A stretch of DNA of 38,003 nucleotides from Patescibacteria group bacterium (GCA_038064255.1 JBBTTM010000013.1:1-38003), one strand, 5' to 3'. Positions 2 to 20,673 are shown, counted from the stretch's first letter. Notes: generated by a model not told the origin, from the letters alone. Numbers and translations: made by a program.

Positions 2-868
2 AGCGCAGCCGAAGCAAAATCTTCCCATCCGTTAAGCATGGCTATCCTTGAGGAAGCCAAGCGAAGAAAGATTGCTGTTCCATCAAAGGTAGAAAAATTC
101 AACAACTTGGCCGGTCATGGCGTTGAGGCTGTAGTAAATGGCAAACATGTTCTTGTGGGCACAACCAAGCTCATGAATGACTGGAACGTAGATATGACAC
201 CCATACAATCAGATATCGACAGGCTATTAACTGAAGGGAAAACAATAATGATTTTAGCAGTAGATAAAAAGGTTGCAGGTGTAGCAGCAGCGTCAGACCC
301 GATTAAGGCAAACGCAAAAATTGCTATTTTGAGAATGAAAGAAATGGGACTAGAAATTGCGATGATTACCGGAGACAACAAAAAGACTGCCGAAACAATT
401 GGTAAGGAACTCGGAATCGATAGAATTTTTTCTGAAGTACTTCCGGAGGATAAAGCATCCTATGTTAAAAAGTTACAGTCTGAGGGTAAGTTTACAGCTA
501 TGGTCGGTGACGGAGTAAATGACGCTCCGGCTCTGGCTCAAGCAGATATAGGTATTGCCATAGGCGCAGGGACGGATGTTGCGATTGAAACCGCCAATGT
601 CGTCCTCATGAAATCTGATCCTCTCGATATTCTTCGGGCAATAGTGCTTAGTAAAGCAACCGTCAGAAAAATGAAGGAAAATTTAGTATGGGCAAGTGTC
701 TATAATCTTTTGGCCATACCTATCGCCGCTGGGGTATTATATCCGAAATTTGGCATAACATTGCGTCCGGAATTTTCGGCACTTTTAATGTCCGCTTCAT
801 CTATTATCGTGGCCGTCAACGCAGTGCTACTCAAAAGAGTAGAAAAAAGTCTGATTGCAGGCCGATAA
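2..868 (+). CDS. Heavy-metal (copper-type) P1B ATPase, C-terminal ~289 aa; the 5' end lies outside the window
   Basis: Frame 2 is open from base 2 (SAAEAKSSHPLSMAILEEA, the SEHPL-type nucleotide-domain motif), so the ATG at 38 is internal. Also present: ITGDN, the [21 protein letters not shown] hinge, NLVWASVYNLLAIP (NX6YNX4P) and MSASSIIVAVN TM motifs. Confidence 0.9.
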   Translation, partial: SAAEAKSSHPLSMAILEEAKRRKIAVPSKVEKFNNLAGHGVEAVVNGKHVLVGTTKLMNDWNVDMTPIQSDIDRLLTEGKTIMILAVDKKVAGVAAASDPIKANAKIAILRMKEMGLEIAMITGDNKKTAETIGKELGIDRIFSEVLPEDKASYVKKLQSEGKFTAMVGDGVNDAPALAQADIGIAIGAGTDVAIETANVVLMKSDPLDILRAIVLSKATVRKMKENLVWASVYNLLAIPIAAGVLYPKFGITLRPEFSALLMSASSIIVAVNAVLLKRVEKSLIAGR

Positions 869-911
869 TCTTAATCAAATCTTAATACGGTGTCTTATAC
901 ACTATTGAAAT

Positions 912-2717
912 ATGAATACCCAAAAGGTTTATATAAAAGGCATGCACTGCAGATCGTGCGAAATTTTGATAGAGGACGAACTGAAAAAAGTGCGGGGTGT
1001 AAATCGGGTATCCGTAAATCATCAGACTGGAGTTGCGGATGTGGAGTGTGAATGTGAACTGGACGGACAGGAAGTTGCCAGTGCGGTGGAAAGTGCCGGC
1101 TACAGCATAGGTCAGGATGGGAAAATTCATTTATTTTCTCGTAACCATAGGGATTATATAGATTTAGGCATCGCGTTTTTTATCGCAACGGCATTATTTT
1201 TAATGGCAAAGACCCTCGGAATTTTTAACTTGAGTAGTACCATTTCCGGTAGTTATTCCAGCCTACCGATTGTCTTTTTGATCGGTGTAACTGCCGGCGT
1301 ATCTACGTGCATGGCGATGGTGGGAGGTTTAGTTCTTGGAGCATCTGCACGTTTTTCGGCGCAAAATCCACATGCAACCAACCTGGAAAAATTCAAGCCT
1401 CATGTATTTTTTAACCTTGGACGTATCGCATCATATGTTGTTCTTGGAGGGCTTATTGGCTATGCCGGATCTCTATTTCAGCTTTCGACTTCAGTACTAG
1501 GAACGCTCACTGTTGCTGTTGGTTTAGTTATGCTGCTTCTTGGCGGACAGTTGATAGACATTTTTCCTGTTTTGAAGAAGATTTCATTTACACTCCCAAA
1601 GGGGATTCATCGAATGCTTGGTATACAGGAAAAATCGGAAGATCAATATAGCAATAAAAATGCGGCTCTTATGGGAGCTATGACCTTTTTTCTTCCCTGT
1701 GGATTTACTCAGGCCATGCAGCTATACGCCATGAGTACCGGTAGTCCTCTCACCGGTGCTTTGACTATGGGTGTTTTTGCACTTGGTACAGCACCGGGGC
1801 TTCTGGGTGTAGGAGGATTGACGTCGGTTATAAAAGGTGGTACAGCAAAGTTATTTTTTAAGACCGCAGGTGTTGTCGTTATTTCACTTGCATTTTTTAA
1901 TGTCTCAAACGGCCTGAATCTACTCGGTGTTCCTCAAGTGCTTGCAGCGCTTACTTCAAATACTTCAGCGCTAAGCCCTAGTCAGGATCCAAATGTGTCA
2001 CTGGAAAATGGTGTTCAGGTTGTCCGCATGACACAAGGATCTTCCGGATATTCTCCCAACAAGTTTACGATTAAAAAAGGTGTTCCTGTCAGATGGATTG
2101 TGACATCAAAAGATATTTATTCATGTGCGAGCAGCATTGTCTCCCAGGAACTCGGCATCCGCAAGGGATTGGAGCTTGGCGAAAATATATTTGAATTTAC
2201 CCCTGTAAAAACAGGTACGATCCGTTTCTCATGTGTTATGGGAATGTACAACGGTTCTTTTGCCGTCGTAGATGAAAATACTACCGCAACAGTTCCCTCA
2301 GCTCTCAGGGCAGATACAACCCAAGGAGCAAATACCGGCGCATCGTCTTGCGGTGCAGGTGGTGGAGGATGCGGATGCGGAGGCGGAAAAGCAGCTGCGC
2401 AAAATATCAATCAAATAGCCGGAGAGACCATTGAGCAGGGAAATGTTCAAGTAATACAGGCCACATATACCTCACTCGGAGATATATCTCCAAATCGTTT
2501 TACAGTGAACGCAAAACAACCGGTACGGTTTGAAATTGAGGCAAAAGAAGATGGGCAAGGATGCATGGGGAGTGTGACAATTCCAAGTCTTTCAAAAAAA
2601 GTTGAAGTGTTTACAAAAGGACAAACGGTTGTCTTTGAATTTACCCCGACCATTGCAGGAACGTATAATATTACCTGCGCCATGGGAATTCCGAGAGGTC
2701 AGATACGGGTAAACTAA
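912..2717 (+). CDS. Fusion protein: N-terminal HMA metal-binding domain, ~6-TM DsbD_2/TauE-like membrane domain, and two C-terminal cupredoxin-like domains
   Basis: GMHCRSCE HMA motif at the N-terminus. Hydrophobic core from about aa 90 to 330 includes a FFLPCGFTQAMQ segment. Two homologous ~90-aa beta-rich repeats (VQVVRMTQ...FSCVMGMYNG and VQVIQATY...ITCAMGIPRG) are joined by a Gly/Cys linker. Lies in a copper gene context. Confidence 0.75.
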   Translation: MNTQKVYIKGMHCRSCEILIEDELKKVRGVNRVSVNHQTGVADVECECELDGQEVASAVESAGYSIGQDGKIHLFSRNHRDYIDLGIAFFIATALFLMAKTLGIFNLSSTISGSYSSLPIVFLIGVTAGVSTCMAMVGGLVLGASARFSAQNPHATNLEKFKPHVFFNLGRIASYVVLGGLIGYAGSLFQLSTSVLGTLTVAVGLVMLLLGGQLIDIFPVLKKISFTLPKGIHRMLGIQEKSEDQYSNKNAALMGAMTFFLPCGFTQAMQLYAMSTGSPLTGALTMGVFALGTAPGLLGVGGLTSVIKGGTAKLFFKTAGVVVISLAFFNVSNGLNLLGVPQVLAALTSNTSALSPSQDPNVSLENGVQVVRMTQGSSGYSPNKFTIKKGVPVRWIVTSKDIYSCASSIVSQELGIRKGLELGENIFEFTPVKTGTIRFSCVMGMYNGSFAVVDENTTATVPSALRADTTQGANTGASSCGAGGGGCGCGGGKAAAQNINQIAGETIEQGNVQVIQATYTSLGDISPNRFTVNAKQPVRFEIEAKEDGQGCMGSVTIPSLSKKVEVFTKGQTVVFEFTPTIAGTYNITCAMGIPRGQIRVN

Positions 2718-2729
2718 AAGGAGAATACT

Positions 2730-2936
2730 ATGCAAACACAAACAGTGACATTGTCGGGATTAACGTGCCCCGCTTGTAAAAAAATTACCGAGAAAAAAAT
2801 CGGAGGGATAAGCGATGTTAAAAGTGTTGAAGTGGTCGTAAATTCAGGAATTGCTACACTGTGTGCCGATAGAGAAATATCGAAGTTTGAAATTGAAGAG
2901 GTATTAAGAGATACGCCATATAAAATTATTGTGTAA
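2730..2936 (+). CDS. copZ: Small HMA-domain metallochaperone (CopZ-like)
   Basis: 68 aa with GLTCPACK (the CxxC of the HMA fold). AAAGGAG Shine-Dalgarno 8 nt upstream. Sits directly before copA. Confidence 0.85.
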
Positions 2937-2947
2937 AGGAAAATCAT

Positions 2948-5800
2948 ATGAATGAGCGGATTGATACGCTTGATACACTCAGTATCAACCCTGAGCAAAG
3001 TCGAAGGGTTGAACTAAAAATAAATGGAATGCATTGTCAGTCCTGTGAGATGCTCATAAAAGACGAACTTTCTGCGCTTACCGGGCTTACGGATATTTTT
3101 ATCGATCATAAAACCGGTTCCGGATCACTCGTGGCCACGGATGGTCAGATTTCAGATTCAGTAATACTTGACTCGATAAAGAGTGCTGGCTATCAAGGAT
3201 CGATAGTGCAAACCAATCAAACGAGTAATGGTTTTTCAAAAATTCCATTTGTAAAAGAGACCTCGCCTCTGCAGTCCTTCATTTTTCCGAAAGAAATTGA
3301 ACTTGAAGGAAAAATAGGGAAAAATGAGAATGGGGAACTCATTATTAGAGGAAAATTGCGTTTCGGTTCAGAAGCAAATAATGATCTTCAATCGGTAAGT
3401 AATCATATACAAGCAAAGCCGGATCAACAAATTCAAAGCTCGAAATCAGAACGAACGAGCTTGGTTATTTCCGGCATGCATTGTTCATCCTGTGCATCTA
3501 TTATTGAACGTCAATTGAAAAAAGTTCCGGGAGTTACTGAGGCCCGAGTGAACTTTGCGGCAGAAAAAGCGTCTATACTCTACGATACTGGTATCGCGTC
3601 GTCAGCAGACCTCATACAGGCAGTTGAAAAAGCCGGATACAAAGCTATGCCTGCCGATTCAGAAGATTCAAAGGCGCAGGCAAAAAGACAGCAATCGGAA
3701 ATATCCCACCAGTGGAATAAGTTTTTATTTAGTCTTATCCTGTCGTCTCCCATGATTTATTTTATGCTTCTGGATTTTTTCAGTTTTCTTCCCGGGGCAA
3801 AGACGCTATTACCCTATATTGGCATTGTCTCTTTTGTTCTTGCTACTCCGGTTCAATTTATCACCGGTTCTAGTTTTTATAAAGGCATGGTATCGGCTCT
3901 GAAGATGCGCACTTTTAACATGGATAGTCTTATCGCCATCGGTACGTCGGTTGCATTTTTTTATAGTGCAATCAATTTTATCCAATATTTTCTAACGACG
4001 AAATCAATATTTGGATTAAATGGAGCAAAGATTCCTGAATTATACTTTGAGACAGCAGCATTTCTCATAACATTTGTTATTTTAGGCAAATTTCTGGAAG
4101 CCAAAGCCAAAGGGAGAACAGGAGAGGCGATAAAAAAACTCATGGGGCTTCAAGCGAAAACCGCTAGGGTCGTAAGAAACGGACAAACAATGGATATTCC
4201 TATCGAAGAGGTAGTAAAAAACGATATTATCGTTGTCCGACCAGGGGAAAAAGTTCCTGTCGACGGTGTTATCGTCAAAGGCTCATCTTCAGTAGATGAA
4301 TCCATGATTACCGGAGAAAGTTTACCGGTAGAGAAGCATGTCGAAGACTCAGTCATCGGTGGCACAATAAATAAAGTTGGAAGTTTTGAATTTATGGCTA
4401 CGAGAGTTGGAAACGAGACGACTCTCTCCCAGATTATTCGGCTTGTCGAAGATGCCCAAGGGTCCAAGGCTCCCATCCAGGCTGTGGCTGATAGAATTTC
4501 TGCGTATTTTGTACCAGCGGTCATAGTGATCGCAGCGCTTACGTTTGTCGTGTGGTTTTTTGTACTCGGGTCTTCTCTTTCATTCGCCCTCATGGCATTT
4601 ACCGCAGTCATCGTTATTGCCTGTCCGTGTGCACTCGGTCTTGCAACTCCTACGGCGATTATGGTTGGCACCGGAGTTGGGGCAGAAAATGGCATATTGA
4701 TCAAGGGTGGAGAGCCTTTGGAAAGTGCAAGTACGATAAATACAATTGTGTTTGATAAAACAGGCACTATTACCAAGGGAAAGCCTGAAGTCACGGATAT
4801 AGAAGATATAGGAAATCTAGATGAGGACGAGGTATTGGCACTTTCTGCAAGCCTTGAAAAACAATCAGAACATCCTCTTGCCGAAGCAATCTGCTCGTAT
4901 GCCGATGAGGAAGGCGTACATTTATTTGAGGTTGAAGGATTTTCAGCTATCCCAGGACATGGAGTAAAAGGGATTATAGAAAAGAAAGAGTATTATTTTG
5001 GGAATAGGAAACTGATGAAGGATACTCTCGGTCACGATATGAATAAAATAGAGCGAAAAATGATACGACTGGAGGAACAGGGAAAAACGGCTATGATCTT
5101 AGCATCAAAAGAGAGCGTGTTGGGTATTATCGCTGTTGCAGATACGGTAAAAGAATCGTCACGGGAGGCGGTAGAAATGCTACAGAAAAAAGGCATTGAA
5201 GTATGGATGATTACCGGTGACAATATGAGAACAGCCAAAGCGATAGCATCTCAGGTTGGAATTGAAAAGGTATTAGCTGAGGTGTTACCGCAGGATAAAG
5301 CCAATGAAGTGAAAAAGCTTCAAGACGCTGGGAAAAAGGTGGCCATGGTGGGAGATGGTATAAACGATGCTCCGGCTCTGGCTCAGGCAGACCTTGGTAT
5401 TGCCATGGGATCCGGCACTGATGTTGCTATGGAAACCGGTGGGATAGTTATCATAAAAAATGATCTTCGGGATGTCGTACACGCGCTTGATCTGTCCAAG
5501 ACCACGGTACAAAAAATTCAACAGAATATGTTTTTTGCCCTGTTTTATAATGTCATCGGTATTCCGATAGCAGCCCGTATTTTTGCAGGTATTGGACTAG
5601 TATTAAAGCCGGAGCTTGCGGGTCTTGCCATGGCATTAAGCTCCGTTTCTGTAGTGAGTAATTCGCTTCTGCTTCGAAGGTATAAGCCGGGGAAGAAAAA
5701 CTATCTATCTATGTTTGCGCCGGTCATCATGATGGTAGCGTTTACGCTATTGTTTATTGAGTTTGCGCGGTTTAGTTCCACCATGGCAACTCCCAGGTAA
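2948..5800 (+). CDS. copA: Copper-translocating P1B-1 ATPase with two N-terminal HMA domains
   Basis: GMHCQSCE and [11 protein letters not shown] motifs, [14 protein letters not shown] (CPC), [41 protein letters not shown], and the NX6YNX4P plus MALSS TM motifs. AAGGA SD upstream. Confidence 0.95.
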
Positions 5801-8359: not shown

Positions 8360-8430
8360 TGCGGGATCGTATAATGGTAGTACGCATCCCTCTGGAGGAT
8401 GTTATCTTGGTTCGAATCCAAGTCCCGCAG
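8360..8430 (+). tRNA. tRNA-Gln (anticodon CUG)
   Basis: Hand-folded cloverleaf: acceptor TGCGGGA/TCCCGCA with U1-A72 and G73, U8, D-stem GTAT/GTAC with a GG loop, anticodon stem CATCC/GGATG with loop CT-CTG-GA, and T-arm CTTGG-TTCGAAT-CCAAG. 71 nt; CCA is not encoded. Confidence 0.85.
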
Positions 8431-15791: not shown

Positions 15792-16028
15792 GCGTCAAAG
15801 ACCAGATTTAGTAGTACTTTTTATAGACGCGGGACGGAGTACTTCAAAAATAGCAAATAAAAATCATTATCGGTTATTGTAAGATACCTCACAATGTAGG
15901 CACGGCCCTCTTTACTTCTGTGATTCATCTGATCTAACCTTATATTATACCTGTATTTATATTTTTGTGTTCATTTTGTAAAAACACTATAGGTTTGTGA
16001 AACCTATCCGAAGGGAGGTGAAATATAT

Positions 16029-16592
16029 ATGAAACGAATACTTTTTGCTCTCGCGGCACTTTCAATTGCAGTCGGCACAGGTTTTGCTACGACGCGAGCA
16101 GTCTGGACAGACACAGTAACGGTTGCTTCTAATCAGGTGGTTACCGGCACGACGGATTTGCAGGTCAGTACAGATAACGCAGTTACGTGGAGTACGACAT
16201 CCATGTCATCAGCGTTTAATCTTATCGGGATAATTCCTGGTCCAGTCAGTCCTGGTACGTATGCATTTTCTCTAAAGAATCTTTCTTCAAGTCCATTGAA
16301 TTTTACTTTAGGGGGAAGGATTACTCCTGCTACTGTCATTGCCGGATCACCGGATAAAACAAAACTTTTGATTCAGATTTATGACATAGATACTCCAGCA
16401 GATGCTACAGCATGGAAGACATTAGCTGAATGGGAAGCGGCCAGCGCAGGCGGGATAATTTTTAACTCAACATTAAATAATGGAGTAACAAAGCGGTACG
16501 GAATAAAGGTTCAGCTTGACGGAACGGCAGATAATACGTGGCAAGGAAAAACGGTAACATTTTCTATTGAAGCCATGGGAACACAGATATAA
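16029..16592 (+). CDS. Secreted TasA/camelysin-like protein with a SipW-cognate-type signal peptide
   Basis: GGGAGGTGA SD. Signal MKRILFALAALSIAVGTGFATTRAVWTD followed by ASNQVVTGTTDL (compare B. subtilis TasA ...GGGTWAAFND...FASGTLDL). C-terminal ADNTWQGKTVTFSIEAMGTQ resembles the GNxYQGK...F motif of the family. Confidence 0.65.
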   Translation: MKRILFALAALSIAVGTGFATTRAVWTDTVTVASNQVVTGTTDLQVSTDNAVTWSTTSMSSAFNLIGIIPGPVSPGTYAFSLKNLSSSPLNFTLGGRITPATVIAGSPDKTKLLIQIYDIDTPADATAWKTLAEWEAASAGGIIFNSTLNNGVTKRYGIKVQLDGTADNTWQGKTVTFSIEAMGTQI

Positions 16593-16659
16593 GTTTTTGG
16601 TTTTTTGGGGTCACGGCTTCCCGTTGGGTTGTCGTGGCTTCCTCTTGAGCCAAAAACTT
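16591..16659 (+). promoter_or_regulatory. Perfect 10-bp inverted repeat (aagtttttgg / ccaaaaactt) spanning the whole gap between the TasA-like gene and the peptidase-fusion gene
   Basis: The arms at 16591-16600 and 16650-16659 are read directly. The 49-nt loop contains the direct repeats cacggcttcc and cgtggcttcc. The right arm ends 1 nt before the ATG at 16661. Confidence 0.45.
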
Positions 16660-16660
16660 T

Positions 16661-19600
16661 ATGAAGTATTTGCGATCAGCATTAAAATGGATAGGATGTA
16701 TCCTGAACTTTGCGAAGGGTTCGGCGTTTGTGGTGGTTGTTGGCCTTGGATTGCTTTCGCTTCTTGCTTCAACTAGCTTGCCCTGGCAACTGCCATATAA
16801 ACCATTTATCGTTACTTCCGGAAGCATGCGGCCAACCATCTCGGAAGGATCAGTCGTGTTTGTGGATCGAAGAACCAGTGATGTTAAGGCTGGGGATATC
16901 GTTACGTTTTTCCGGCCGGACAATGTACGGGAAAATGTAACTCATAGAATCGTTTCGATAGATGCAAAGGAAGATAAAATTTTCTACAAAACCAAAGGTG
17001 ATGCGAACGACTCTGAAGATGCCTGGGCAGTAAGACGTGAGGCCTTATGGGGAAAAGTAGTATTTCATATTCCGTGGTTAGGATTCTTAATGAGTTTCAC
17101 CAAAACCAGGCCAGGGGTCCTTCTGATAGTTGTTTTACCGCTTACAGTCATTGCTATCGACGAACTCCGAATTATTTTTCAGGAAATTAGTAAGATACGA
17201 AAGAAAAAAGCTAAGAAAGATAATCCATCGAACACCTCTGTTATTGCACTACTGCTTTTGATTTCCTACGGTTTTTTTGCCACAACCATGGGTACGACGA
17301 TGAGCGGTTTCACCGATACGACATCGGCTACAGATCAAGAGGTCGTCACGTCTTGTTGGGTGGCGCCAAGTGCTGTATCTCAGCTTTTGCCTCCGGATAA
17401 TGCAAATACAAATACCACGGACATTTCGTTTAGTTGGTCGTCGACAACTTCGAGTTGTCCTATTGCGACACTCACATATAACGTTCGTGTATATACAGAC
17501 GTTGGCCTCACGACGCTCTATGGAGAATCCGGGTATGGTGTTGGTTTATCGGGAACATTCACTTCTGTTCCCGAAGGAGAGTATTGGTGGGAAGTGCGCG
17601 CAAAGGATCAATATGCCAATGTGTCGTCGAGCGGTTCACGGCACCTAATTGTAGACAGAACATCATCATTGGCGTCACTTTCTGTAACCGGATCAGGATA
17701 TAAGGTCGTAGAAGAAAAAATATCAAACGGAGATTTTGAAAGTGGGGATTTAAGCGGATGGGGGACATTTGGCAGTGTAAACGTTTTAAGTTCTGATGCT
17801 GTTTTGACTCCTGTAACTTCGGTTTTGCCATATGAAGGAAGTTCAATGGTCCGGGTAGGTGATACGACTGATTCCGGTTCAGGAAATTTTGTCTGGGAAA
17901 ATAGACTTATGCAATCTGTGTCTACTGGCGCCAAGAGTCTGTCGCTTTATTATAATTTTTTTACTCGTGACGATGCACCTTTTGACGATCCTGGTTTTTT
18001 TATACGGCTAAACGGTCAAAATATTTTTACCAAGAGATCCGGTGATGTTGCAGGAATATTCGGAGATGCCAGATCAACGGGGTGGAATCAATTCACATAT
18101 AACTTAAGCTTGGTTACAGATTCGATGACAAATCTTGCATTTTATGCCGGGAATACCGGCGACAAAGATAATCAATCATGGGTGTATCTGGATAAAATTA
18201 CTACGTATTATGTTACTGCCCGGGGAACAGCGGATTATGATCTGATAGGTACAGACAGTCTATCTGGCGTGGCGTATTGTGAATACAAAGAAGGAGCAGG
18301 CGGAACGTGGACAACATTTGCATCTGCGTTTCAAATACCCACTTCGGGAAGCCATGATCTTTCGTATCGATGTGTCGACAATGCCGGAAATGTTGGGGCA
18401 ATTTCGCTTGTAAAGGTTATTACAGATATTGATGCGCCTGAAGTGATTACGGATTTTAGCGTTGTTTCCTCGACCTACAATACTGCAACGCTTCAATGGA
18501 CTGCGCCAGGAAATGACGGTGCTGGATCAACGACTAGGAGCGCATCGTATGACGTGAGATATTCTCTGACGGATATCACTGATGATGCATCTTTTGACGC
18601 GGCCATGAGCGTAGAAAATGTACCGGCTCCTAAGCCCGTTGGTGAAACAGAAACACTTGAAATAATTGGATTAAATCCGTCTACGACGTATTATTTTGCA
18701 GTTAAAGCGAAAGATGAAGCACCAAATACATCTTTATTATCAAATGTATCATCGGTTACGACTCTTGTAGGATCGCCAATAAATCCGGGAGATATTATCA
18801 TAAATGAACTTATGTGGTCCGGATCGAGCATAACCGAAAATGATGAATGGATTGAGCTTAAAAATATGACGGATAGAACGTTAGATATTACAGGTTTATC
18901 CATAACGCGACTGGCAGGTGGAGCAGACGTCTCTATGATTCCAGTCTCAAGTTTCGTAGGAAAAACGATTGCGCCATATGGATATTTTCTCTTGAGTCAC
19001 TTTGTAAATACTTCATCGAAGATAAAGGATACAGTTATTCCTAATATTGTTGATTCAGGTGTAAATCTTTCAGATACTGAGCTTGAGATTAAGCTGTATA
19101 GTGGTGCAATTCTTATCGATACTGCATGGGATGGTACAGCGCCAACAGAAGGAATCAGCGATACTATCAATGGAAAGTATTATTCCATGGAGAGAACAGG
19201 TGTTCCAGGTGATGGGGCGAATCCGCTCAACTGGTATACGTGTATCGATAGCGCTTCGACGACGGACTATTTTGACGGTGGTACGGATGAACGAGGAACG
19301 CCGGGTGCAAAAAATAGGTCAGAAAATGAACCTCTAGCACATCAATTTATATTGAATAGAGATATTGTTCAATATTCAACAGATAGTGCAACCATATCAG
19401 CGGTATATATACGATTGAGTAATGAAAGTATACAGACAGAAAGTACTCAATCTGCGAGTCAGTCAGCGACAAAAGCAGTGATTACTCCAAGAGTGGAGAT
19501 TTCGCGATCAACAGATGGAAAATCTCTTTCATTCACAATTATAGATGTCTCTTCGTATGTTTTTCTCTCGTATGAGCTTACGTATGATTCTTCCATCGGA

Positions 19601-19792
19601 ACACAGGGTGTTGTCGGGAAATCGGTACTTCACGGCGATTCACAGTTTGTAAAAAACGACATTCTTCTTGGCACATGTTCTACTGGAGGAATCTGCGCGT
19701 ATCATGCTGACGTGAAAAATCTTGCAATACACGTGACACTTGTCGATAGCAACGGAGATGTAATAAAAATTCAGGGAAGCGAGTCACCATGA
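16661..19792 (+). CDS. SipW-type (S26B) signal peptidase I fused to an internal signal peptide and a large multi-domain ectodomain (Ig-like, CBM/jelly-roll-like, Ig-like, FN3, lamin-tail domain, unknown C-terminal domain)
   Basis: N-terminal TM; SGSMRPT (Ser55, 16823-16825); THRIV (His95, 16943-16945); KGDAN; second TM at aa 150-172; basic loop KIRKKKAKK; third hydrophobic segment with TTMSGFTDTTSA. Then NGDFESGDLSGWG (CBM-like), LQWTAPGNDG...YYFAVKAKDEAPN (FN3), and IINELMWSGS...DEWIELKN...GTPGAKN (LTD). Confidence 0.8.
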   Translation: MKYLRSALKWIGCILNFAKGSAFVVVVGLGLLSLLASTSLPWQLPYKPFIVTSGSMRPTISEGSVVFVDRRTSDVKAGDIVTFFRPDNVRENVTHRIVSIDAKEDKIFYKTKGDANDSEDAWAVRREALWGKVVFHIPWLGFLMSFTKTRPGVLLIVVLPLTVIAIDELRIIFQEISKIRKKKAKKDNPSNTSVIALLLLISYGFFATTMGTTMSGFTDTTSATDQEVVTSCWVAPSAVSQLLPPDNANTNTTDISFSWSSTTSSCPIATLTYNVRVYTDVGLTTLYGESGYGVGLSGTFTSVPEGEYWWEVRAKDQYANVSSSGSRHLIVDRTSSLASLSVTGSGYKVVEEKISNGDFESGDLSGWGTFGSVNVLSSDAVLTPVTSVLPYEGSSMVRVGDTTDSGSGNFVWENRLMQSVSTGAKSLSLYYNFFTRDDAPFDDPGFFIRLNGQNIFTKRSGDVAGIFGDARSTGWNQFTYNLSLVTDSMTNLAFYAGNTGDKDNQSWVYLDKITTYYVTARGTADYDLIGTDSLSGVAYCEYKEGAGGTWTTFASAFQIPTSGSHDLSYRCVDNAGNVGAISLVKVITDIDAPEVITDFSVVSSTYNTATLQWTAPGNDGAGSTTRSASYDVRYSLTDITDDASFDAAMSVENVPAPKPVGETETLEIIGLNPSTTYYFAVKAKDEAPNTSLLSNVSSVTTLVGSPINPGDIIINELMWSGSSITENDEWIELKNMTDRTLDITGLSITRLAGGADVSMIPVSSFVGKTIAPYGYFLLSHFVNTSSKIKDTVIPNIVDSGVNLSDTELEIKLYSGAILIDTAWDGTAPTEGISDTINGKYYSMERTGVPGDGANPLNWYTCIDSASTTDYFDGGTDERGTPGAKNRSENEPLAHQFILNRDIVQYSTDSATISAVYIRLSNESIQTESTQSASQSATKAVITPRVEISRSTDGKSLSFTIIDVSSYVFLSYELTYDSSIGTQGVVGKSVLHGDSQFVKNDILLGTCSTGGICAYHADVKNLAIHVTLVDSNGDVIKIQGSESP

Positions 19793-20673
19793 GATTAAAA
19801 GTATTGATACGAATTCTGATTCTCTTTTTTGTCTTTGGATTCTTGCGTGTGTCGGTGAATGCGGCAGATATCAATGTGTCATGTACAGTTGGCGGATGCG
19901 CACCGCATGCTGTAACAGGATTATTTCCAGCTTCGACTATATGGCTACCAGGAACAAGTGTTTCAAAATCTATCCAGGTAGAAAATGCCACTGGCATGAA
20001 GCAGTCTGTGGGACTTCGGACTCAAAATGTTTCGGTTACCGGTAGCGTTGATACTGTTCTAACTATGACGATACGTCAGCTGAATGGAAACACTACAATA
20101 TATTCAGGATCTCTTGAGACTTTTTTTGCAACGCCTTCTTTTACTCTCGATACTCTTGATTCAGCGAAGACCGAGACATATATCTTTACGATAGTCATGC
20201 CAAATACTGCAGGGAATCAGTATCAATCGAAAAGTGCTTTGTTTGACTTGCTTGTAAGCCTTACGGAAATTCAACCAGTAGCGGATAACTCTAAAAATGG
20301 AGGAAGCTCGAGCAGTACATCAAATTCATCTTCAGCCTCAGTGACTTCGGATACTTCATCGACCGAGCCGCAGGGGAGCGGATTATCAATTGGGGAACAG
20401 ACAGGAGAAGCTTTGAGTGAGGGTACTGATGTACTTGGGATTTCAACTCCATCTGCCGGTATTGTGCCAGGGTCTTCGGGTAGTAGTGAAATTCTTGGAT
20501 TTCAGTTTTGTTATCTGTGCATGGTTTTGCCAATTCCGATTATAATTTTATTTGAAATTATTTTTTATTATTTTGGTTTTTTGAGTGAAATTAAAATTAT
20601 ATGGAGGATAATTTTCGGTATAATACTCTATATTTTTTTGTACGGTATTTTTATATTTATATATCGGTTATGA
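19789..20673 (+). CDS. TasA/camelysin-like domain protein with a Sec signal peptide, a Ser-rich stalk and a C-terminal double-TM anchor
   Basis: ATGA start/stop overlap with the upstream gene. Signal ...VSVNA-ADI; PGTSVSKSIQVENATG and NTAGNQYQSKSALFDLLVSL family-like motifs; GGSSSSTSNSSSASVTSDTSST linker; hydrophobic C-terminal ~70 aa. Confidence 0.65.
   Translation: MRLKVLIRILILFFVFGFLRVSVNAADINVSCTVGGCAPHAVTGLFPASTIWLPGTSVSKSIQVENATGMKQSVGLRTQNVSVTGSVDTVLTMTIRQLNGNTTIYSGSLETFFATPSFTLDTLDSAKTETYIFTIVMPNTAGNQYQSKSALFDLLVSLTEIQPVADNSKNGGSSSSTSNSSSASVTSDTSSTEPQGSGLSIGEQTGEALSEGTDVLGISTPSAGIVPGSSGSSEILGFQFCYLCMVLPIPIIILFEIIFYYFGFLSEIKIIWRIIFGIILYIFLYGIFIFIYRL

Follow-up and report, generated by a model that had tools for sequence, protein, structure and literature searches.

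We analyzed a stretch of 38,003 nucleotides from a Patescibacteria group bacterium (GCA_038064255.1 JBBTTM010000013.1:1-38003; this whole stretch is referred to as the window) and focus on a cluster of three genes, all on the + strand, that occupies about 4.6 kb at 16029-20673. With confidence somewhat better than even, we read this cluster as encoding a minimal, self-contained surface fiber of the TasA type, assembled by donor-strand exchange from three structural parts and equipped with its own signal peptidase. Gene 1 is most likely a divergent beta-sandwich protein of the TasA/camelysin superfamily and the predicted major (shaft) subunit; gene 2 appears to join a SipW-type signal peptidase to the precursor of a predicted tip subunit; and gene 3 is most likely a TasA-like paralog without the donor strand, the predicted base or anchor subunit. 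The host is most likely an ultra-small, uncultured monoderm bacterium within the candidate phyla radiation (CPR) related to Gottesmanbacteria.

An earlier description made from the DNA alone (hereafter the sequence-only reading) had noted three tightly linked, co-directional genes, with a gap of 68 nt after gene 1 and an ATGA overlap at the junction of genes 2 and 3. Coordinates and translations agree with this, and each of the motifs it quoted (AVWTD, NQVVTGTTDL, PGTSVSKSIQVENATG, ADNTWQGKTVTF, and AGNQYQSKSALF) is present in the translations.

16029-16592, + strand: gene 1, open reading frame (ORF) of 187 amino acids (aa)
16661-19792, + strand: gene 2, ORF of 1043 aa
19789-20673, + strand: gene 3, ORF of 294 aa

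Gene 1, the predicted shaft subunit

The relationship of gene 1 to TasA emerges at the level of profiles. A gene 1 profile searched against 1.8 billion representatives returned 1158 proteins, 167 of them at E <= 1e-10 and nearly all about 180-200 aa long and matched end to end. Among 108 remote relatives, 45 are PF12389 proteins (best E 9.3e-12), 32 match TIGR04088 (best 2.3e-8), and 8 weakly match the TasA equivalog. Because the narrow gene 1 family aligns only weakly with TasA in hhalign (probability 20%), a wider profile was needed for this link: the wide gene 1 family aligns with Bacillus subtilis TasA, used as a query whose residues 28-261 are identical to PDB 8aur, at a probability of 95.3% and an E of 2.4e-8. 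A greedy local hhalign alignment, statistically weak (probability 20%, E 1e-3), places gene 1 end to end on TasA; the order of the N-terminal motif, a PG motif, and the C-terminal N-x-W/Y-Q-G...T-Q strand agrees between the two. In one related locus (L014), the shaft gene carries the annotation PF12389 itself. When the PDB was searched by sequence, neither the individual proteins nor the gene 1 profile rose above chance-level matches. The sequence-only reading had placed genes 1 and 3 in the TasA/camelysin family; this stands by way of profiles and structures, a transitive route, and not by a direct match to PF12389. On their profiles, we regard both as divergent members of the superfamily, tied to PF12389 transitively.

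The AlphaFold2 (AF2) model of gene 1 has a predicted local distance difference test score (pLDDT) of 87. Its top match in Foldseek is the archaeal bundling pilin AbpA (7ueg_A, E 3.6e-5, probability 1.00, TM-score 0.37-0.38), and further matches include FimA/FimG pilins, SafA, and Saci_0406, a Sulfolobus thread subunit. The leading matches are all subunits of donor-strand-exchange fibers.

The N-terminal region of gene 1 contains the segment on which our reading centers:

16029-16100, + strand: gene 1 signal peptide, residues 1-24, with a hydrophobic segment at 3-22 and predicted SipW-type cleavage TRA↓VWTD
16101-16151, + strand: predicted gene 1 donor strand plus linker, residues 25-41, VWTDTVTVASNQVVTGT

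The signal segment aligns with the signal and cleavage region of TasA, whose mature N-terminus is A28 in 8aur, and VWTDTVTVASNQVVTGT aligns to TasA residues 28-44; the donor strand of TasA has been defined experimentally as 28-38 (PMC9674648). In the gene 1 family, this segment is invariant or nearly invariant and is the most conserved part of the protein. The predicted cut places an aromatic residue at P2', a feature that in Bacillus makes TasA a substrate of SipW rather than of LepB (PMC10269814). TIGR04088 matches 16 of 21 gene 1 family members (E < 1, best 3e-4) and TIGR04089 matches 15 of 21, in both cases weakly but consistently. These matches, the profile search, and the structural comparison are three independent lines that put gene 1 in the TasA superfamily.

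One protein of 4021 aa (P0111) has 27 separate stretches that match positions 24-88 of the gene 1 profile, the donor strand and first strands, and looks like a giant protein of tandem TasA-like N-terminal modules.

Gene 3, the predicted anchor

Residues 1-25, + strand: gene 3 signal peptide, cleavage VNA↓AD, conventional AXA
Residues 26-160, + strand: TasA-like jelly-roll domain with invariant C32 and C37 and no donor strand
Residues 161-240, + strand: Ser/Gly-rich, disordered stalk (22 Ser in 85 residues)
Residues about 241-294, + strand: C-terminus with two hydrophobic helices (AF2 helices 248-262 and 269-293)

Only four homologs of gene 3 were found in the databases; orthologs taken from related loci yielded an alignment of seven sequences. 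Both alignment and model are shallow. Compared by hhalign, the gene 3 family matches the wide gene 1/TasA-like family at a probability of 97.8% (E 7.2e-13, 158 columns) and the narrow gene 1 family at 79%. In this profile alignment, gene 3 has a gap of 17 residues exactly at the donor strand (A-x-F-x-D...T-G), and its mature N-terminus, ADINVSC, aligns with 'tADLqIs'; the form ADxN[IV]xC is kept in all seven aligned orthologs. TIGR04088 gives no match on gene 3. A signal peptide, two invariant cysteines, absence of the donor motif, and a low-complexity stalk are common to all ten orthologous loci, and C-terminal hydrophobic segments are present in nearly all of the orthologs. These features support the membrane-anchored second TasA-like protein with a Ser-rich stalk that had been proposed earlier.

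In the AF2 model, the domain at 26-160 is a beta-sandwich with a pLDDT of 75-84, and the stalk falls below 30. Foldseek aligns the domain with TasA (5of1/5of2) at probability 1.00 and TM-scores of 0.33-0.51, the longest alignments and best TM-scores among the many jelly-rolls returned. Structural comparison with AlphaFold and Foldseek, which the sequence-only reading had suggested for genes 1 and 3, therefore returns a jelly-roll likeness to TasA and AbpA, at modest TM-scores.

Gene 2 joins a signal peptidase to a predicted tip protein

16661-17182, + strand: peptidase, residues 1-174, with TM1 (first transmembrane helix) at 22-42, the catalytic domain, and TM2 at 152-174
17183-17302, + strand: internal signal peptide, residues 175-214, with n-region KIRKKKAKK, h-region 192-212, and c-region TMS
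17303-17353, + strand: predicted mature tip N-terminus, residues 215-231, GFTDTTSATDQEVVTSC, which mimics the gene 1 donor strand
17354-19792, + strand: ectodomain, the predicted tip adhesin, residues 232-1043, with Pfam/NCBIfam matches

Judged by family models and motifs, the N-terminus of gene 2 is a complete signal peptidase I of the SipW/archaeal type (MEROPS S26B), as the sequence-only reading had recognized. Residues 20-167 match TIGR02228 at 94.6 bits (cut-off 51.85), and Pfam Peptidase_S26 scores 27.7 against 22.9. The motifs SGSM at 53 (Ser55), THR at 94 (His95, where other enzymes use Lys), and GDAN at 113-116 (the conserved Asp box) we take to be catalytic, from established knowledge of SipW/Sec11-type enzymes. 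The Bacillus SipW equivalog NF046067, at 97.9 bits, does not reach its cut-off of 190; these scores mark the peptidase as of the same type as Bacillus SipW and not as its equivalog. Stand-alone counterparts of 179-187 aa occur in three related loci (L011, L014, and L015).

The sequence-only reading described gene 2 as a giant adhesin-peptidase. The covalent fusion of a peptidase to a multidomain ectodomain (about 830 aa) stands, but a single mature product is called into question by an internal signal peptide and cleavage motif. Hydropathy analysis predicts cleavage before G215 (TMS↓GFTDTTSATDQEVVTSCW, that is, TMS↓GFTD), with small residues at -1 and -3 (T-M-S), like those of gene 1 (T-R-A). 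About half of the 45 homologs of gene 2 are without the peptidase, at about 820 aa, and these stand-alone tips begin with an ordinary signal peptide that leads into the same motif (examples are NTGAYFTDTGNSANNDFKAICW and GGTGAYFSDEVNSAGNNFATGYW). In an alignment on the first immunoglobulin-like (Ig-like) domain, fused proteins have their third helix, position for position, where the stand-alone ones have their signal peptide, and helix and A-x-F-T/S-D motif align across 13 fused and 14 N-terminally complete split homologs. Gene 2 is therefore better read, on this alignment, as a whole SipW joined to a whole pre-protein, that is, to its own putative substrate. Since internal signal peptide and cleavage motif are retained, the ectodomain is probably released as a tip subunit like TapA or TafC.

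Three loci show the parts as separate genes, each in the order shaft, sipW, tip, and anchor. In L011 (Daviesbacteria), a shaft of 180 aa and a SipW of 187 aa are followed by a secreted protein of 423 aa carrying ALFTSSASVTNNNISTGSW and an anchor of 215 aa; L014 has a PF12389 shaft, an S26 peptidase of 179 aa, a tip of 822 aa, and an anchor; and L015 has a shaft, a SipW of 183 aa, a tip of 826 aa, and an anchor. The sipW and tip genes share 4-20 nt in all three, which means that one frameshift or the loss of one stop codon would be enough to join them. The split loci show an ancestral or alternative state of the fusion. The fused L003 (879 aa) and the split L015 lie in the same neighborhood, with GluRS (glutamyl-tRNA synthetase) on the 5' side and a CAP-domain protein and TrmD on the 3' side; fusion and fission are therefore recurrent, and the two states are presumably equivalent in function. 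We rejected a frameshift or assembly artifact as the origin of the fusion, the fused ORF recurring in independent assemblies and lineages.

Gene 2 could alternatively remain uncleaved, as a membrane adhesin-peptidase whose tethered strand nucleates or anchors the fiber, with gene 3 as a second, independent anchor or a cap; the fusion would then hold the peptidase beside the site of assembly. We consider this unlikely. The fusion is indeed stable and recurrent in many lineages, and TapA has been reported to co-localize with the membrane (PMC10151520). TIGR04088 does not recognize the gene 2 junction, and of the N-termini of five stand-alone tips only one comes near its threshold (18.7 against 19); the case for a SipW motif therefore rests on the alignments and not on this model. 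The motif has, moreover, decayed in some fused homologs (AGFLA in P0050, AMLSS in P0049). The junction nevertheless keeps a full n/h/c layout with small residues at -1 and -3, the stand-alone tips are ordinary cleavable secreted proteins with the same motif, and the interchange of fused and split forms at one syntenic locus suggests that they are equivalent. With genes 2 and 3 both anchored, the fiber would also be tied to the membrane at both ends.

The predicted tip strand mimics and co-varies with the shaft strand

The predicted mature N-terminus of the tip resembles the donor strand of the shaft (GFTDTTSATDQEVVTS in gene 2, VWTDTVTVASNQVVTG in gene 1). Fused and split homologs alike keep its motif, [A/G]-x-F-[T/S]-D...N-x-[F/I/V]...C-W, and hhalign places it on donor positions 22-40 of the TasA-like profile (E 5e-4), a short match of 19 columns at a probability of 32%. 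By the same method, the Ig-like domain that follows is not TasA-like. TapA of Bacillus shows the corresponding mimicry (AFHDI for AFNDI of TasA), donates the first strand, and sits only at the start of the filament (PMC10151520, PMC9674648). The TapA model TIGR04087 does not match gene 2 residues 185-300, and one homolog reaches 14.4 bits (cut-off 80).

Compared over 12 loci, the tip segment of 17 residues is closer to the shaft strand encoded in the same genome than to the strands from other genomes, as in L016 (LFSSSVTASGVTFATGN and LFVSSSTASGVTFSVKD) and L014 (FFSDTGTSSANTFTAGT and YFTDTGNSANNDFKAIC). The cognate pair ranks first in 6 of the 12 loci. In permutations that used registers set by hand and ignored kinship among the loci, p was < 5e-5 for the 12 loci and 5e-5 for 8 divergent ones. 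A strand that is conserved in the shaft, deleted in gene 3, and both mimicked by and co-varying with the tip suggests indirectly that the subunits would polymerize by N-terminal donor-strand exchange.

This pattern also bears on whether genes 1 and 3 form filaments at all. They could instead be SipW-processed surface or matrix proteins, such as a coat, a monomeric adhesin, or a camelysin-like protein, with the cluster as their export cassette. As a monomer, TasA is stable and soluble (PMC9674648), gene 1 modeled by AF2 as a monomer has a closed, confident fold, and most Foldseek matches of gene 3 are jelly-rolls that do not form filaments. By contrast, gene 1 finds its best structural matches in the donor-strand pilins AbpA, FimA/FimG, SafA, and Saci_0406, and the strand that is most conserved is the one that the anchored paralog lacks and the tip mimics and co-varies with, a pattern that makes sense only for strand exchange. 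We therefore hold a non-filamentous role to be improbable.

The rest of the ectodomain includes the Ig-like domain, a weak CBM_4_9-like match (353-408), an OmpL47-type barrel (527-585), an fn3 domain (597-687), a lamin-tail domain (708-793), and at the C-terminus a domain with Cys. It is very improbable that it serves, apart from any fiber, as a substrate-capture or enzyme module for scavenging polymers or DNA, to which genes 1 and 3 are accessory: the CBM_4_9-like match, the lamin-tail domain (of a kind common in CPR genomes; PMC6509639), and the different ectodomain of the L011 equivalent would suit such a role, but no catalytic domain was detected in gene 2 in Pfam and NCBIfam scans, variable distal domains on a conserved N-terminal strand are what interchangeable tip adhesins should show, and the strand co-variation would be left unexplained. 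Variable distal domains have been noted for TafC and for the tip proteins of AbpX loci (PMC11821415, PMC12337348, bioRxiv 10.64898/2026.01.04.697558).

Conservation of the locus

The gene order recurs, fused or split, in every related locus long enough to show it, and the arrangement is not due to chance. A survey of neighborhoods finds the three genes together across Microgenomates genomes, as the sequence-only reading anticipated; TasA likeness, an S26 fold, and co-occurrence, on which that reading depended, are thus all found. The metagenome-assembled genomes (MAGs) that carry the cluster are named Gottesman-, Roizman-, Shapiro-, and Daviesbacteria, besides records of the 'Patescibacteria group', and every named group is within Microgenomates. 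Among named relatives, Gottesmanbacteria come nearest to the window, with 58% identity in gene 2. Three MAG contigs with the cluster (L008, L009, and L013) are titled 'uncultured Gammaproteobacteria' or 'Pseudomonadales', probably through an error of binning or taxonomic label.

In the window, bacA and a cyclophilin gene lie upstream of the cluster and genes for an S-adenosylmethionine (SAM) methyltransferase, a PIG-L protein, and Suf proteins downstream. As these flanks are housekeeping genes, the three genes form the unit; with base composition also flat across the region, we set aside a mobile or viral origin.

The gap between genes 1 and 2, which the sequence-only reading had called palindrome-bounded, forms one long hairpin:

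16591-16659, + strand: intergenic hairpin that fills the 68-nt gap, bounded by GTTTTTGG...CCAAAAAC

Its predicted stability is -36.2 kcal/mol (z = -6.4), reached by none of 200 shuffles. A hairpin stands at the equivalent site between shaft and peptidase in eight of nine loci (the window, L001, L002, L003, L007, L008, L009, and L011; z -4.3 to -7.4) and is absent among the nine only in L013, where the gap is 7 nt. Divergent loci have inner stems of different sequence, a 3' arm resembling CTTCCTC recurs, and four pairs show compensatory changes among close relatives. An Rfam search assigned the hairpin to no family. The terminator scan, which finds fewer sites than in shuffles and is uninformative, does not call it because it has no T-run. 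The hairpin is a probable attenuator or 3' stabilizer of the mRNA through which more shaft than tip and anchor would be made. A ratio near 100:1 is reported for TasA and TapA (PMC10151520), and likewise for TafA and TafC (PMC11821415).

A model of assembly

The following route would be consistent with these observations. Sec would export all three pre-proteins. As the cleavage motifs suggest, the SipW domain of gene 2 would cut the neighboring TasA-like pre-protein of gene 1 at TRA↓VWTD and expose its donor strand. It would also cut gene 2 itself, in cis or in trans, at TMS↓GFTD: TM2 would be followed by a basic cytoplasmic loop and then by the third helix, which would serve as the internal signal peptide, and the cut would free the ectodomain of about 830 aa. 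The freed N-terminus of the tip could then fill the groove of the first gene 1 subunit and start polymerization, leaving the CBM/fn3/lamin-tail adhesin at the distal end, and further gene 1 subunits would chain head to tail by donor-strand exchange. Gene 3, without a donor strand, could only accept one; it would take the last free strand, terminate the fiber, and tether it to the cytoplasmic membrane through its Ser-rich stalk and helices. The shaft would be kept in excess by the conserved hairpin that follows gene 1, along with the translational coupling between genes 2 and 3. The analysis itself establishes the family assignments, the domain anatomy, the conservation of the locus in its split and fused forms, and the co-variation of tip and shaft strands, whereas internal cleavage, polymerization, the polarity of the fiber, adhesion, and the role of the hairpin are inferred.

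Several results weigh against this model. Direct scans give genes 1 and 3 no Pfam or NCBIfam match above threshold, and PF12389 (Peptidase_M73) matches neither at E <= 1 in the Pfam scan. TIGR04088 scores 13.7 bits on gene 1, below its cut-off of 19, TIGR04089 likewise stays below threshold on gene 1, and the silence of TIGR04088 at the gene 2 junction counts in the same direction. The comparison of the gene 3 family with a single TasA sequence by hhalign is not significant; the AF2 model of gene 3, built on 5 sequences, has an overall pLDDT of 57; and generic jelly-rolls (C-CPE, CUB) surpass TasA by E-value in its Foldseek search. The Foldseek TM-scores are modest throughout, at about 0.35-0.5. 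To these come the shortness of the tip-strand alignment and the manual registers and neglected kinship of the co-variation test, both given above, and the fact that the hairpin, with no T-run, has an unproven role as a terminator.

More tentatively, at somewhat less than even confidence, we propose that Microgenomates carry a polar, membrane-anchored pilus of the TasA type, in which the peptidase is made as one chain with its own substrate and frees it, and which serves as an attachment organelle. If this were true, each peptidase would, by virtue of the fusion, bring exactly one tip adhesin to the site of assembly, and a fiber with interchangeable tip domains would be the organelle by which these episymbionts attach to hosts or surfaces, distinct from type IV pili. 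To our knowledge, how CPR/Patescibacteria attach to hosts and surfaces is largely obscure beyond type IV pili, and we know of no Microgenomates representative in culture.

Neighboring features

A Shine-Dalgarno-like sequence read from the DNA precedes gene 1:

16013-16018, + strand: GGGAGG, 10 nt 5' of the gene 1 ATG

The region upstream of gene 1 is 236 nt long, AT-rich, intergenic, and common with the divergently transcribed bacA. A promoter scan found 10 sites with 12.7 expected, fewer than in shuffles, and is uninformative.

Several related loci carry additional genes beside the cluster. A stand-alone second S26 signal peptidase lies a few kb 3' of it in L014 (9758-10336) and L016 (12785-13360), adjoining the genes for ParB and the ribosomal proteins L27/L21. 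This second peptidase presumably does the housekeeping work, and the SipW-type enzyme would by implication be a dedicated one. In L003 (12490-13347) and L015 (9722-10579), a secreted CAP-domain (PF00188) protein of 285 aa directly follows the anchor gene and may be an additional accessory, or unrelated. L016 has, at 435-5202, genes for a 1117-aa protein, a 207-aa protein, and a sortase directly 5' of a Roizmanbacteria-like fused cluster; these may form a second, sortase-dependent module for a surface protein or pilus beside the TasA-type one.

Elsewhere in the window, a copper-handling pair at 912-5800 encodes a protein of 601 aa with HMA, DsbD_2, and two cupredoxin-like domains and a P-type ATPase of 950 aa with two HMA domains. 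A tRNA gene at 8360-8430 (+ strand; RF00005, 60 bits) is all that Rfam matches in the window. Over 1-38003, 37 of the 38 one-kb bins have a positive GC skew, regardless of gene orientation, and the cumulative skew climbs steadily, a pattern that fits a single replichore with strong strand asymmetry, as has been reported for one Microgenomates genome (PMC7143001).

Comparison with known systems

The sequence-only reading was aware of no described system with this layout. This no longer holds, as shaft, tip, anchor, and peptidase have been proposed together for the haloarchaeal Tat-fimbriae (Tafi) in 2025 (PMC11821415, PMC12337348) and for AbpX loci in 2026 (bioRxiv 10.64898/2026.01.04.697558).

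In the Bacillus tapA-sipW-tasA operon (8aur, 5of1), as here, a dedicated SipW-type peptidase lies beside its substrates, the major subunit is of the TasA superfamily with an A-x-[F/W]-x-D...G-T-x-D-L N-terminus and a C-terminal N-x-[Y/W]-Q-G...T-Q strand, and the N-terminus of a minor protein copies the donor strand (AFHDI of TapA and AFNDI of TasA; here GFTDT... and VWTDT...). In contrast to Bacillus, genes 1 and 3 fall below the thresholds of PF12389 and the TasA equivalog, and the peptidase is fused to the TapA-like protein, giving the order shaft, peptidase-tip, anchor. The tip, at about 830 aa, has unrelated domains and no homology to TapA, and there is an extra membrane-anchored paralog without a donor strand, which Bacillus does not have.

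The proposal for Tafi makes TafC the tip, TafE the adapter, TafA the shaft, TafF the membrane anchor, and TafD the signal peptidase, TafF consisting of a pilin-like domain and C-terminal helices (PMC11821415, PMC12337348). Likened by description, our cluster would have the same parts list and polarity, with a strand-donating tip, a shaft, a strand-accepting anchor, and a peptidase at the locus, and gene 3, again by description, has the traits of the TafF-like class: a pilin-like domain without a donor strand and a C-terminal membrane anchor. It differs in its CPR bacterial host and in signals of the Sec/SipW type rather than Tat; it has no adapter pilin, DUF5305 (TafG) partner, or regulator; and peptidase and tip are one polypeptide.

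In the archaeal bundling pili (ABP) of Pyrobaculum (7ueg), AbpA is the best structural match of gene 1 and AbpB is a proposed initiator with distal adhesin domains. The ABP study found PF12389 homologs in Patescibacteria and proposed AbpB as the strand-donating initiator and adhesin (PMC9245690); unlike the present cluster, the ABP locus has no dedicated peptidase. AbpX loci often include a signal peptidase I, tip proteins, minor subunits, and cell-envelope anchors, but the reported peptidase fusions are with DUF5305 only and not with a tip subunit (bioRxiv 10.64898/2026.01.04.697558), and the bacterial anchors described there are SLH or LPXTG proteins rather than membrane-helix proteins.

Chaperone-usher pili of type 1 and P (FimA, FimG, FimH, and PapH) likewise join beta-sandwich subunits by an N-terminal donor strand and follow the same logic of specialized tip and terminator or anchor subunits, and gene 1 has FimA/FimG among its best structural matches. 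In our cluster, however, there is no chaperone, usher, or outer membrane, and the polarity is opposite, the tip donating a strand where FimH accepts one. This is probably a case of analogy, not of homology.

A literature search found no description of a peptidase-tip fusion, of this shaft family, or of a CPR donor-strand fiber. The locus offers a compact parts list for a second kind of CPR surface fiber and would extend the tip, shaft, anchor, and peptidase logic of the archaeal TasA superfamily to bacteria. The interchange of split and fused forms provides 'Rosetta stone' evidence that the tip is a SipW client, and the fusion itself would be a handy system for studying SipW specificity and possible autoprocessing in cis. 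The anchored paralog without a donor strand suggests how fibers of the TasA type could be terminated and tethered without a cell-wall sorting system, and co-variation of tip and shaft strands could become a general bioinformatic signature of initiator subunits. Set against these systems, the cluster is a bacterial version of a layout already proposed, and the fusion of peptidase to substrate is its unusual feature.

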